Below are positions 23,681 through 52,267 of a DNA stretch of 64,000 bases, one piece after another. Under the pieces are notes generated by a model. It had not been told where the DNA came from. It did no database searches and saw nothing but the letters and a program-made list of their open reading frames with translations. Origin of the DNA: Eledone cirrhosa (Eukaryota); assembly GCA_964016885.1 (NCBI GenBank), contig OZ024743.1, positions 192,448,001 through 192,512,000 on the forward strand, read 5' to 3'. Within the stretch, counting starts at the first letter, position 1. Each line of letters starts with the position of its first letter. The position numbers were made by a program, and so were the translations under genes.

Positions 23681-25138
23681 GATCTTGGTAGTGTACAGAG
23701 GAGGAAGAAATCTCAATATTGATAATAGAGTATATGTAATTTTATTCATTCAGTTTCTTACATCATAGTTATAGTAAGTTCACTAAGCTTCTTCAGAGAA
23801 GAGCTGTAGTTTTATCCAGGTTTCTCAGCTATTTAGTTTTATACTATCCACACAAAATATATACATGCACACATAAGTTACTGTTTTTTTTTTTTTTTTT
23901 TTTTGTAATTATTATTATTATTATCATGTGTGAAATAATAGTGATGCAGAGATAATAGTGATGATGATAGATCCTCTGTTGGTTTTGATGGGAAGTACTC
24001 AATTTTCCAATCAACTAGACATCTAACATATAAATGAATGTACACTTGTACATTCATAGATACATGTAGTCTCATCATAACTTTTCAACTGAATCAGCAT
24101 AATATAATTGTTTCTACTTTAGGCACAAGGCCAGCAATTACCCAGTGCATTACTGGTACTTTATTTTATCGACCCCGTAAGGATGAAAGGCAAAGTCAAC
24201 CTCGGCGAGATTTGAACTCAGATCATAAAGGGACGTAACTATGCTGGAAAGCATGGCGTCCGACCCTCTACCGATACTGCCAATCCACCGCCCTTAGCAT
24301 AATATAATATGTGACAATATGATACAGGTACAAACCATCCAACAGGCTTCTACACTGTTGATGTCTATCCAATTTTCTCACAAGGCTTCGGTTGATTAGA
24401 GATTATGGCAAAGAAATTTGTTCAAGGAGTCGCATGGTGGTATTGAACCTGGAACCTCATGACTGCAAAATGAACTTTTTAACTACTCAGTCATGCAGAG
24501 AAAATAATACATATTTGATATACAGAGATGTGCAATAATGTAAGACCAATCCCAACTTATAATAACTGAAAAACCAATCCCAGTTTATAATAATAACAGA
24601 CATGGGAAAAAAAAAAAAAGTGACTGCTCCACAAATCTTTTCATACAAATTCTTGACCTCATCATCATCATCGTTTAACGTCTATTTTCTATGCTAGCAT
24701 GGGTTAGATTGGTTTGTCCCATTTAGAGGTAAGTTGGATCGGGTGTCTGTGTCTCACTCATATAGGGCAGTTTCTGGCTGGTTTTCTATGGGGTCGATAA
24801 AATAAAGTACCAGTAATGCACTGGGTATTTGCTGGCCTTGTGCCAAAAGTAGAAACAATTATTAGGGTGGAAGAAAATTTAAGGAAAGATTTTAAGAAAA
24901 AAATATATTAAAGCTACTAACAATATTTATATTTGTTGATTATTCAAAGTTGACGTTAGAAAGGGCATCCAGCTGTAGAAACCAAGCAAGAATCAGTCCT
25001 GTATGAGCAAGACATGGTCACCTGACCTAGCATAGCCCACAACAGGACAACCCGTCTAACCAATGCTAATGTGGAAAATGGACGCAAGATGAAGGGTGAT
25101 GATGATGTATGTATATACACACAAATATACACACACAC

Positions 25139-25208
<70 letters not shown>

Positions 25209-25339
25209 GTGAGGTTTTTTTTACAAAATGAAAAATAACCGAGGTGTCCTACACGAGTGAAAGTATAAAGAAAAAGAGATGAAATCGAAAATGCAACTGG
25301 AGTCTTATTTTTTTTTAAAATATATATATTTATTTGGTT

Positions 25340-25377
25340 CCTTTACCGGTTTCGCAGTTCTTCTGCTTTTCAAAAGG
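25340..25377 (-). ncRNA. Minimal type I hammerhead (U3-A8), minus-strand arm of the palindrome
   Basis: Exact reverse complement of 25453-25490. Confidence 0.8.
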
Positions 25378-25452
25378 TGAGTTGAGATGGAGGGTCTGTG
25401 GTTTTTCTCACATCTGATGTGAGAAAAACCACAGACCCTCCATCTCAACTCA

Positions 25453-25490
25453 CCTTTTGAAAAGCAGAAGAACTGCGAAACCGGTAAAGG
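25453..25490 (+). ncRNA. Minimal type I hammerhead (U3-A8)
   Basis: CCTT-TTGAAAA-GCAG(aagaa)CTGC-GAA-ACCGGT-A-AAGG: stems I and II, palindromic stem III, GUA site. Confidence 0.8.
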
Positions 25491-25560
25491 AACCAAATAA
25501 ATATATATATTTTTTTAAAAAAATAAGACTCCAGTTGCATTTTCGATTTCATCTCTTTTT

Positions 25561-25629
<69 letters not shown>

Positions 25630-25661
25630 TATATATATGTGTGCATGTATGTATATATATA

Positions 25662-26172
25662 TATATATACATACTACTGTACGTCTGTATACATATATGT
25701 ATGTACGTGTACATACTTATATTTAAGTAACAGCCGTACTAAGAGTGGGAAATTAAATTTCATTTCATTTTTTCCGTTTATCGTTTTCGGTGCACCCGGC
25801 CGATTAACCCACTCGATATGCAAATTGGGCTACTCAGCCGTTAATATGCATAAGGTAAGTATATACGTTCAACAATCTGGCAGGAAGGTATACGTTGCTG
25901 ACGATAGCTAATAAGCTTGAAACTAGTACAGCGTTCCTTTGTCAGTGTTGAACAAACGAGCAACGATGGTTGCTAGACACTACGGCTTAATACGGGATGT
26001 TTGTTTACAAACACACCGAGCATTATAATAAATGTTCGGTGAATCCAAACGTTATATATACATACTACTGTACGTCTGTATACATATATGTATGTACGTG
26101 TACATACTTATATTTAAGTAACAGCCGTTCTAAGAGTGGGAAATGAAATTTCGTTTCATTTTTTCCGTTTAT
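25662..26172 (+). mobile_element. Retrozyme-like element: 391-bp unit plus about 120-bp partial tandem repeat in (TA)n
   Basis: 25662-25781 recurs at 26053-26172 with about three substitutions; one central HHR. Confidence 0.75.
25892..25934 (+). ncRNA. Minimal type I hammerhead ribozyme
   Basis: ACGTTG-CTGACGA-T-AGCT(aata)AGCT-T-GAA-ACTAGT-A-CAGCGT; palindromic stem III; GUA site. Confidence 0.85.
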
Positions 26173-27596
26173 ATATATATATATGTGTGTGTGTATATTT
26201 GTGTGTATATACATACATCATAGAAATATATATATATATATGTGTGTGTATATACACATACAGGACTGATTCTGGCTTGATTTCTACAGCTGGATGCCCT
26301 TCCTAATGCCAACCTCATTGACAGTGAGTACTGAATGCTTTTTGTCGTGACGCCTATATATATATTAGATATTAGTTCAACAATGATAATAATAACAAAG
26401 GCAAGTTATTGATTTCCAAAGAAGACAGTATGATCGAACTCATATACTATGTCTGATAGTATACAGTTCTCTAACAGTCAATATATCAATATGATCAACC
26501 CTCCGAAACGATCGTAAAACAATAAATGAAATATGTAAAATAACTTGCCTGTTATTATTATCATTGTCAAACAAATATCTAATATATCAGACTCTGTATA
26601 TGAAGGATTGACTCAGTGAAACACGGAACCAAACTCTGGATCTCACTGAAAAACTTGCTAATGGATTACATTGAGTTCTAACTACGGTATTAGACCCTAC
26701 CACAAAAGGTAGACCACATTCATCATCATCATCATCATCATTTCATTTTACGTCCGTTTTTCCCTGCTTGCAAGGGTGGGACAGGAACTGATTCTGGCTT
26801 GATTTCTACAGCTGGATGCCCTTCCTAACACCAACCTCATTTACAGAGAGTGCTGGGTGCTTTTTTGCCGTGGCACCTCCACGATCACTTTGCAGTGGAA
26901 TGATATGGACCCCAGTCCCTATCATCTCATTTCTACAACTGAGTAAACTGGAGCAATGTGAAATAAAGTGTCTTGCTCAAGGAAACAACACATCACCCGG
27001 TCAGAGAATTGAACTCACAACCTTTCGATTGCAAGGCCAATGCTCTAACCACTAAGCCATGTGCCTCCATTATATATATACATATGAGTTTTTTACTCTA
27101 TGACACAAATGTTAGTATTAGTAGGTTAGTTAAAATAACTGTAAAAATAATATTTACCTAAGTAATTAATACAAAATCAAATTAATTAAACCAGCATAAT
27201 TGTCAGTGATAGTGTTTCAATTCATATATGTATTATATATATAAACCCGGATGTGTGTATCTGTCTATAACTCTCTTTACATTTTGTAGTCAAAATTGAT
27301 GTGAATATAATTAAATTTCTCTCTTCATGGGAACATGTGTATATATATATTGCGAGCAAGACAATCACTCTTGCCTCAAGTGGGACTACCCCCGTCCAAA
27401 CCCATGCAAGCGTGGAACACGGACGTTAAACGTTGTTGATGATGATGATGATGATATATGGAACCCTTGCAAGCAGGGAAAAGCGGACGTAAAATGATGA
27501 TGATGTATGTATGTAAAAGGTAAACAGAAATAACACAATTGGTACAGTATATGGAAGGAATATATTAGGTTAACGCTTGAAATAGCAGGAAGAGGG

Positions 27597-27632
27597 TCTT
27601 AACGTTTCGGATGCTAGTCCTTCATCAGAAGA
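27597..27632 (-). ncRNA. Minimal hammerhead, Penelope pseudo-LTR type
   Basis: Minus strand TCTT-CTGATGA-A-GGA(ctagca)TCC-GAA-ACGT-T-AAGA. A decayed copy of the same repeat family is at about 37390-37580 (core 37495-37526). Confidence 0.65.
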
Positions 27633-28668: not shown

Positions 28669-29064
28669 CCCTTTAACGTTTATATTACTCTATATTTATT
28701 ATTATATTTTCACCAGAAAAGCTTTATCTATTGGCAGTATCGGTAGAGGGTCGGACGTCATGCTTTGACACATAGAGTTACGGCCTTTGCCATTCTGAGT
28801 TCAAATCCCGCCGAGGTTAACTTTGCCTTTCATCCTTACGGGGTCGATAAAATAAAGTACCAGTAATACACTGGGTATTTGCTGACCTTGTGCCAAAAGT
28901 AGAAACAATTATTATCTCACATAATATTGAATCTATGAGATATTGATGTTATTTATATTGAGAACAATACCTTAACATTGGTGTGAGTGACCGATTATGG
29001 CCGGTTTGAACAGAAAGAGGTGAGATAATTCTGGCCGGATAATGTCAGTTTAAATGCTAATGGG
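28669..29064. mobile_element. piggyBac-type MITE interrupted by a SINE (about 28730-28913)
   Basis: TTAA|CCC...GGG|TTAA; ttatct duplicated around the SINE. Confidence 0.8.
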
Positions 29065-41466: not shown

Positions 41467-43330
41467 TAATTAGTTACAACAGTGTACTGGTACTTAAGTT
41501 TTGTTGGGTTGTTTACCTCAAATCATTCAGTATATCATAAAAAGAAAAATGGTTTCCCACAATGGAGATTTTATAAAAATATAGGTGAGTTCTAAGGGTA
41601 GATAATCCCCATTATCTAGAAACCAACAAATACCTTACATAATGTAAGTGAAAAAAGAGATAACAATAAAAAAAAAGGTTATTAGAGAACACTCCAACCT
41701 TAATCGGTGGGATAATAGTCAAGTAGTCATGGATTAGTTTAATGTCTTCAAACACTCAAAGAATGCTAAGTTTACACAATTTGATATAGTTGACTTTTAT
41801 CTTTCCTTACCCAGGACCTTGGATTTCGCTAGCAATTTCACCATATATATACGAGTTAGTAATATCCCACTGTAGGAAAACCCTCCTCTTTAAAATAGAA
41901 ATCCACTAAAAATTACCTATTCGATGTGGTGATGGGATTATTTGACAGTACTGATATATGTGATTTGGGGGACCTTTTTATCTTAGACACACTACGTAAG
42001 AATTCCTTGACTTCCATATGGGCCTATATCGTGATGATGGTCTGGGACTATCGAGCCATAACCTCAAAACGTTTAGAAAAAAAATCTAATAATTACCTTC
42101 AACAACCTAGACTAAAAATGACCATCTCTACCAACTTCACCAATGTTAACTTCCTAGATGTTAACTTAGACCTATGTCTACGCACATACATACCATTCCC
42201 CCACAAACCCAGTGAAAAACTTAGGTATATTCATAAGGACTCTAGTCCTCCCACCACCAACATAGTTTTTATAAATCTCATTAATAACATCAGCAAGAGG
42301 GTATCTAGCAAAGCCATCTTTGACAGGGCAGCCCCCAACAACAACAACTCAGCCCCAGCATTAGTGGCTTCTTCGAGAGAATCTCTTACTCTCCAGATCA
42401 CTGCCCTATAACTAGCAAGAAAAAATCTAGGCATAAAGCCATAATGTGGTTCACACCACCATTCGTGCTCAATATGAAGACAATGTAGGTAGAAAATACC
42501 TAGCCTTCTTAGGTTTTCGCTTCCCTGTAGCCTACAAATACCAGCAAATATTTAACTGCTACACAATGAAAATAGGTTACTCATGTACCAAAAATATGAA
42601 ATCCCACATCACCAACAAACACAAAAGTCTTCCACCTTACGGATGCTCATGCAGAAGGCCAGAGGCATACTCCCTGGATCAACAGTGCACACCCCTCCTG
42701 TGGTGATACATTAAGCAGAAGTTACCTCCACCAACCAGAACCACTAAACTGAAGCCTGGACTTCTGTAGGAATGTTTGAGAGCCGGTTCAAAAGCCATTT
42801 CCTGAACCACGAAACAACGTTCTGACCACTCAGCTTGCGAACCATATATGGAACCTCAAAGATAACAGCACAGTATTTTCCATTAAATAAAGGATACTGG
42901 AAAGATCCACTCCTACGTCAATGGGATGGCATGTTGGTAGCTGTGTAACTCGAAGAAGTGGAATATACTCTCACAACAGACTTCAGGCAAACATTGCTTA
43001 AATATACGCTTCCCCTGCTTCAATTGCTGTCATCCTTAAGCAAAATTTATTCTGAATAAATGGTCTAAAACAGATTAATTGAATTTATTTTTTTGAATTT
43101 TCAATTCAACCCCTGGGCTCGCTGTGAAACAGTTGCCTACCAAGGATTTTTTTTAATAGTTACCTTCCTTTTCACTTACATTATATAAGGTGTATTTGTG
43201 TATTTATAGATAATTTCGGGTTTACCTACACTTAGAACTCTTCTATACTTTCTAAAATCTCCACGTTGGGAAGCCAAACAACCCAACGAAACCTAAGTAC
43301 TTGTACATGTTGTAACTAACTAATTTTATA
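41467..43330 (+). mobile_element. Decayed, 5'-truncated Penelope-like element (RT + GIY-YIG) with inverted pseudo-LTR termini
   Basis: Frameshifted motifs QFDIVDFY (41777), FDVVMG..D..DICDL, GLYRDDGL (42021), VNFLDVNLDL, WFTPPF..NVGRKYL, HIWNLKD. About 41467-41665 is a diverged reverse complement of about 43160-43330. Confidence 0.85.
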
Positions 43331-52223: not shown

Positions 52224-52267
52224 TAACAAAGTTCTTTCGTTGCACATCTGCAACATCATCAGTGGTA
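52224..52267 (-). ncRNA. Minimal hammerhead, slightly decayed
   Basis: Minus strand TACCA-CTGATGA-T-GTTGCA(gatg)TGCAAC-GAA-AGAACT-T-TGTTA; one mismatch in stem I and an imperfect stem III palindrome. Confidence 0.6.

Follow-up and report, generated by a model that had tools for sequence, protein, structure and literature searches.

Hammerhead-bearing repeats of Eledone cirrhosa likely form a non-LTR retrozyme family whose insertions share their end signature with coding Penelope-like elements

We describe a large family of noncoding, hammerhead-bearing repeats in the genome of Eledone cirrhosa, one damaged copy of which lies in a 64,000-nt stretch of assembly GCA_964016885.1 (contig OZ024743.1, positions 192,448,001 to 192,512,000 of the forward strand; hereafter the window). 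We hold with good confidence that the family is a non-autonomous non-LTR retrozyme, likely mobilized by the target-primed reverse transcription (RT) of Penelope-like elements (PLEs) into (TA)n. The retrozyme class and its link to PLEs are already in print, as set out in the accessible text of PMC7229834 and 10.64898/2026.07.22.740005; the return of retrozymes to DNA has, however, previously been a hypothesis drawn from co-occurrence and pseudo-LTR (pLTR) similarity. Here, retrozyme insertions and the coding PLEs of this genome share a countable signature, in which the two arms each use one of two fixed internal start sites.

Results

The copy in the window

The locus was first noticed for a pair of ~120-bp direct repeats with about three substitutions and a period of 391, surrounding a CTGACGA hammerhead motif with an ACTAGT stem III. 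Both observations hold: 25662–25781 and 26053–26172 share 120 nt with 3 substitutions at a spacing of 391, and the hammerhead core at 25898 is accompanied by GAAA-CTAG-TA. The features of the locus are as follows, where unit positions (q) are counted from q1 = window 25662 and S and L denote the two 3′-terminal sites defined below:

25203..25566, no strand: separate neighboring insertion, a head-to-head, 5′-truncated 3′ end of coding PLE family B
25564..25622, no strand: (TA)n tract, the probable target, containing the 5′ junction of the element (sequence, alignment)
25623..25661, + strand: 5′ partial unit, the TA-rich end of the ~420-nt unit, left edge approximate (alignment to L002)
25662..25781, + strand: repeat copy 1 (q1–120), with the S site (~25722) and the L site (25781) both read through
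25882..25938, + strand: type I hammerhead, the sole one of this copy (sequence, pattern; cleavage predicted)
26052..26053, + strand: 29-nt deletion at the unit junction, removing part of one arm of a long TA-rich hairpin
26053..26172, + strand: repeat copy 2, ending at the L terminus, the putative RT start
26114..26172, + strand: ~59-nt "tail" between the S and L termini
26173..26185, no strand: (TA)n at the 3′ junction (sequence)

Comparison with the family overturns the reading of the locus as a 391-bp monomer. Alignment to the unit of L002 shows a 29-nt deletion at the internal unit junction of the window copy and places its left edge at ~25623, ~39 nt outside the originally annotated span; the segment found at this 5′ start is the same one that is absent from the internal junction, and counting it the redundancy of the copy is really ~158 nt. 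All 29 other fetched loci have 25–51 additional nucleotides at the unit junction relative to the window copy, the family unit measures ~420 nt, and the 391 period is private to this one copy. A 391-nt circle, suggested as its source, would lack the very 29 nt that the copy holds at its 5′ end, so that RT around such a circle could not have made it. With its 1.3 units, one hammerhead and L-type 3′ end, the copy is proposed to consist of one arm that ends at L and that annealed at its 5′ end via the unit's own TA-rich stretch. Having one hammerhead only, it could not release a monomer and is therefore likely a dead end for further spread: the flagged copy is an ordinary damaged member of its family. 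The locus is flanked by copies of two other dispersed repeats, which we take to be SINE-like (26265–26343 and 26787–26865; 24104–24240, 24787–24864 and 28776–28914).

A large family of short noncoding units

The query 25720–26052, searched against the 3.0-Gb assembly, returned 431 candidates, the 40 scored of which are 96–100% identical across the query. An exact 30-nt hammerhead core occurs 10,575 times in the genome versus 0 times for its reversed control, and a general hammerhead pattern, through which sister hammerhead units of 466, 311 and 484 nt were found, occurs 63,193 times versus 4,020 for the control. The unit is 37% GC and noncoding, with no long open reading frame (ORF), and divergence from the majority sequence is 1.9% in a young subfamily and 2.6% in an older one. 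Most loci hold one or two units; the multimers anticipated among genomic copies are present, with up to seven units in one locus (L067). A variant, q93 G>T, shared by 27 loci was discounted as a search-selection effect.

Two further observations concern array structure. The 466- and 311-nt sister units form head-to-head arrays of up to ~30 near-identical units (L195–L196, L197–L199), and two loci of the main family (L123, L067) show a two-unit higher-order period in which alternate units are identical, a pattern that may stem from a dimer duplicated later, from a circular template that was itself dimeric, or from the assembly.

Our literature search found no paper on octopus or cephalopod retrozymes; the supplements of PMC7229834 and 10.64898/2026.07.22.740005, as well as Repbase/Dfam, may list the family. 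The main text of the O. vulgaris repeat paper PMC13282606 contains none of the words "hammerhead," "ribozyme" or "retrozyme," and that of PMC7229834 does not mention octopus or cephalopods.

Hammerhead and RNA fold

The motif is predicted to form a type I hammerhead of canonical size, in which stem III is palindromic. In the window copy, stem I pairs 25882–25886 with 25934–25938 and 25893–25897 with 25929–25933 (5+5 bp) around a 6-nt bulge; the CTGACGA core occupies 25898–25904 and the GAAA element 25919–25922; stem II (25906–25909/25914–25917) has 4 bp, sits over a U-U mismatch and is closed by an AAUA loop; and in stem III (25922–25927) one pair is capped with a palindromic tetraloop, the cut being predicted after 25928. 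In a set of 13 hand-picked variants spanning sister families, both partners vary in 8 of the 11 pairs, and none of 500 shuffles attains the score, a result that is not a probability because the variants are related to one another. An Rfam search gave no hammerhead match. Taken by itself, the 71-nt motif is no more stable than its shuffles (z −1.3). Folding of entire units in circular form, each compared with 30 shuffles, yields minimum free energy (MFE) z scores of −5.5 to −10.4, with −6.6 and −8.1 for two units that are intact; antisense strands score −3.8 to −6.5 as well, and the MFE structures contain stems I and II, without the active core.

The hammerhead motif first described is real, but it is not "minimal" in the sense used for PLEs, whose min-HHRs combine a helix II of 7–8 bp with a short helix I and a helix III that is small or absent (PMC4209133). 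Judged by these features and by the bulged nucleotide before stem II, the ribozyme here is of another kind, with a stem II of 4–5 bp (4 bp in the window copy), a bulged 5+5-bp stem I and a palindromic stem III tetraloop.

Two fixed 3′ termini, one per arm

Termini were mapped at 62 of the exact-core loci, chosen by their order along the chromosome. Their 103 arm 3′ ends comprise 38 at q55–66 (S), 43 at q105–121 (L) and 22 elsewhere, placing 81 of 103 at one of two sites ~59 nt apart and mostly running into (TA)n; exact junctions with (TA)n number 1,396 for S and 3,310 for L genome-wide, counts that take in different subfamilies and hence yield no S:L ratio. Contrary to what had been supposed, unit ends are not freely permuted, in that the 3′ ends are fixed at these two sites. 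Contigs from four sequencing runs show these S and L loose ends again and nothing beyond them. The 5′ ends, conversely, are scattered: the 105 internal ones show no significant cluster, and 31 of 136 fall within the unit's own TA-rich stretch, the window copy being of this type. An apparent 5′-end cluster at q230–239 was dropped, as it lies in the set selected for an intact core (8/55 vs. 2/50; scan p 0.08). Few 3′ ends lie in the TA-rich stretch of the unit, though a (TA)n primer would match it best, which makes it likely that the RT start sites are chosen by RNA structure or by protein; the predicted fold places S in a small hairpin loop, with L directly behind a hairpin. At four loci (L253, L254, L030 and L144), an arm with an S end and a short inverted q1–61 piece lie tail to tail on either side of the TA tract.

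Fixed TG..CA ends with a TSD would have pointed to a TRIM-type LTR element. The ends of copies are not TG..CA, and a non-TA TSD of at least 7 nt is absent in 25 of 25 single-arm loci; the TG..CA LTRs and type III hammerhead that, with a 4–5-bp TSD, define TRIMs and LTR retrozymes are likewise lacking, and the ends together with the type I topology exclude both.

Head-to-head insertions combine one S arm with one L arm. The 62-locus set contains 34 such insertions, of which 11 are unclassed and the 23 with both ends classed are all S+L; the best-match set gives 13 of 14, with a single L+L exception (L020), and 19 further loci give 6 of 6, for a pooled count over the three sets of 42 of 43. When the genome-wide end lists are paired, 9 of 9 insertions are S+L where both lists are complete (2 of the 9 were counted before), and an S+S exception, L252, lies outside that range. 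Five inverted arrays of the 466-, 311- and 484-nt sister units, read by eye, are also S+L. One locus, L029, was excluded from the array, end-pairing and 5′-end sets, being covered by L067. The end classifier applied to the best-match set misassigned the window copy (L001), which ends at L. We found no counted end rule in the literature, where the supplements of key papers may differ: the accessible text of PMC8557442 and PMC3846280 describes the tail as optional or often one-sided, without counts. In vitro work on a PLE identifies the tail as the interval between two internal RT start sites, reports extension of both target strands and predicts a dimer (PMC11167929).

Coding Penelope-like elements in the same genome

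The same pairing of ends is seen in a coding family. Family C, with many intact 784-codon frames carrying RVT_1 and GIY-YIG among the 150 scored of 17,245 candidates, has inverted insertions that are S+L in 12 of 12 cases with both ends seen (7/7 and 5/5). Its linker reads CX4CxxC, which marks Neptune or Nematis (PMC8557442) and suggests that family C is of one of these types. The family is very young, with 0.5% pairwise divergence among the top matches (e.g., L162, L167, L177 and L192). It also has a separate upstream frame of ~430 codons (L192:5357–6670, G000:C5) that starts just after the tail and overlaps the 784-codon RT-endonuclease frame in the −1 frame; the overlap contains T TTT TTA and may represent a −1 frameshift, and no strong hairpin is predicted downstream of that motif.

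The insertion next to the window copy belongs to family B and has its long end on the left arm and its short end on the right; its 151-nt arm used as a DNA query gave no match, and a longer query led to family B. Pattern search finds no canonical hammerhead in families B and C, both of which form partial tandems nonetheless. Units A, A2, D and E show no similarity to the 3′ ends of either family. Family B was considered as the partner and rejected, as its look-alike pyrimidine-rich end is not significant against shuffles, and family C likewise. At least four other PLE families are present, seen as fragments.

No frame with RT and GIY-YIG, as an autonomous PLE would have, is joined to the repeat in the loci scanned, and no copy among the loci read is attached to a coding PLE, contrary to what would be expected if these repeats were always part of one. 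Since the units resemble neither B nor C, the partner is assigned by class: the common insertion anatomy makes a PLE enzyme the likely mobilizer.

Elsewhere in the window, 41899–42333 weakly matches a Penelope-type RT (30%, E 1e-9), and other hammerhead-like cores, from different repeat families, occur at 27628, 37522, 52262 and 60460 (all on the − strand); a core like that at 52262 lies ~290–340 nt behind the GIY-YIG frames of another PLE family.

Circle or uncut multimer as template

Genome copies read through the predicted cut. The segment just 3′ of the cut has 13,094 matches, and 10,396 of them extend exactly across it; as the 3′-side control (7,588/13,094) is weakened by subfamily variation, the first 100 matches were inspected directly, and 79 cross the cut exactly, 19 cross it with mutations and 2 stop at q268–273, i.e., 98 of 100 read through. 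Internal 5′ ends at q262–275 number 3 of 105 versus ~4 expected. A cut linear monomer, whose cDNAs would stop at q268, is therefore rejected as the template, which must have been either a re-ligated circle or an uncut multimer, and between these two we see about even odds.

The terminal redundancy of the window copy had been taken as the trace of a circle or of a partial-tandem pLTR. The partial tandem stands; as proof of a circle the redundancy fails, given that coding PLE families with no canonical hammerhead form partial tandems here too. Nor is a circle step needed to explain the DNA, considering those partial tandems of families B and C and the use of uncut RNA by the anole PLE in vitro, where hammerhead mutants still insert (PMC11167929). 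Within our best explanation, then, we give somewhat less than an even chance to the same PLE insertion proceeding from an uncut linear read-through multimer with no circle at all, a version with which the mixing of subfamily alleles in one arm of L126 also agrees. What speaks against it, indirectly, is that the hammerhead and the closed fold are kept with compensatory changes in four families and, by analogy, that coral, mussel and axolotl build up their retrozyme RNAs in circular form (PMC7229834). Variants within arrays were tried as a test between rolling circle and multimer and rejected: units inside one insertion differ by 2.8–4.2% versus 3.5–4.8% between loci, and the excess sharing inside arrays comes mostly from later duplication (L067, L123 and L019).

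Other origins

More distant from our reading is the proposal that the units are orphan pseudo-LTRs, i.e., 5′-truncated ends of a hammerhead-bearing coding PLE that were later duplicated in tandem. Of the 57 retrozyme families in Xenopus, 24 match known TEs, and for 21 of the 24 the TE is annotated as a PLE (10.64898/2026.07.22.740005); by analogy the same might apply here; some arrays did grow by later duplication (L123, L067 and L019), and our comparison covered part of the PLE families of this genome. Set against this, the loci scanned have no PLE frame upstream of the unit, the hammerhead is bordered on its 5′ side by the previous unit, the unit itself has no long ORF, and the 3′ ends of B and C do not resemble it, so that we consider such an origin improbable.

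LINE enzymes also yield 5′ truncations and 5′ inversions, which a SINE-like element mobilized by a (TA)n-targeting LINE would share; LINE twin priming, however, leaves one 3′ end per insertion, whereas in these insertions both arms possess a complete 3′ end, the two differing by the PLE-type tail. Although LINEs are named as possible partners in PMC7229834, we regard this route as very improbable. A satellite or a TRIM/MITE-like DNA repeat spread without PLEs, its hammerhead incidental, would fit the missing Rfam match and the exact later duplication in some arrays, and is already largely refuted by the polar structure (fixed 3′, scattered 5′ ends), the lack of a TSD and of TG..CA ends, the covarying hammerhead and an end rule identical to that of coding PLEs, leaving it barely tenable.

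Discussion

The assignment as a retrozyme with a PLE link, already put forward in the initial annotation, is upheld by the features of the unit and by an insertion anatomy like that of coding PLEs. Metazoan non-LTR retrozymes consist of 150–450-bp tandem units with one type I hammerhead each, a GC content below 50% and no LTR, PBS or PPT (PMC7229834). The present family has a type I hammerhead in each unit (core, stems I–III and covariation); short noncoding tandem units within the 150–450-bp range, occurring as dimers to multimers, with GC below 50%; no LTR, no short fixed TSD (in a scan for non-TA duplications of at least 7 nt) and no TG..CA ends; and a circular RNA predicted to be strongly self-paired. 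Its insertions display the partial tandem, head-to-head arm, tail and two 3′ ends of PLEs, the same as in coding families B and C.

We propose that loci with at least two units would be transcribed and that their hammerheads would cut as dimers through the palindromic stem III, with the released monomer ligated to a circle. A PLE RT-endonuclease, likely a dimer, would then cut both strands of a TA tract, and each 3′-OH would prime cDNA at an internal RNA site, one at S and the other at L, with a match to the target of merely 2–4 nt. Microhomology would finally join the pair of cDNAs to each other, or a single cDNA to the target.

A bolder version, which we offer tentatively and are inclined to doubt, has the units as viroid-like circular RNAs that are not derived from pLTRs and parasitize hammerhead-less PLE enzymes by mimicking their start-site pair. 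If this were true, one dimeric enzyme would prime both strands of the TA tract at two sites of the same circle and roll round it, and the genome would hold tens of thousands of in vivo records of an asymmetric two-RT mechanism.

The end signature ties retrozyme mobility to PLE enzymes and agrees with the two start sites and both-strand extension observed in vitro. A ~420-nt RNA and an intact 784-codon RT-endonuclease frame in one genome make a compact system for addressing both the circle-template question and that of two-site choice.

Comparison with known systems

With the metazoan non-LTR retrozymes of PMC7229834 the family shares the unit type, the lack of LTRs and the strongly self-paired predicted circle; it differs in being known from DNA sequence and in holding mostly one or two units per locus, and its insertion ends are mapped here, as they are not in the accessible text of that paper. 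Its ribozyme matches the "canonical," dimer-dependent metazoan type (PMC4209133 and PMC7229834): the stem III, with one pair and a palindromic tetraloop, resembles that of the axolotl HHR_Amex1, and the U-U at the base of stem II that of HHR_Amex2 (PMC7229834). The PLE min-HHRs have in common with it the type I topology, the palindromic stem III region and the expected cutting as dimers, although it is the "canonical" metazoan description in PMC4209133, and not that of the min-HHR, which the motif fits.

The dependence of non-autonomous retrozymes on PLEs, and their occurrence as monomers, dimers and multimers, agree with 10.64898/2026.07.22.740005. There, however, the link consists of pLTR similarity and co-occurrence, mostly in vertebrates, whereas here it consists of a common insertion anatomy, and neither of the coding families compared, B and C, shows pLTR similarity to the units. 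That anatomy is shared with EN+ PLEs of the Neptune/Nematis type, including the partial tandems, the head-to-head inverted 5′-truncated arm and the often one-ended tail, as well as the microsatellite targets and the two internal RT start sites (PMC8557442, PMC3846280 and PMC11167929). Unlike EN+ PLEs, the element described here has no ORF, a tail of ~59 nt instead of 30–40, and a hammerhead of canonical size in place of a min-HHR.
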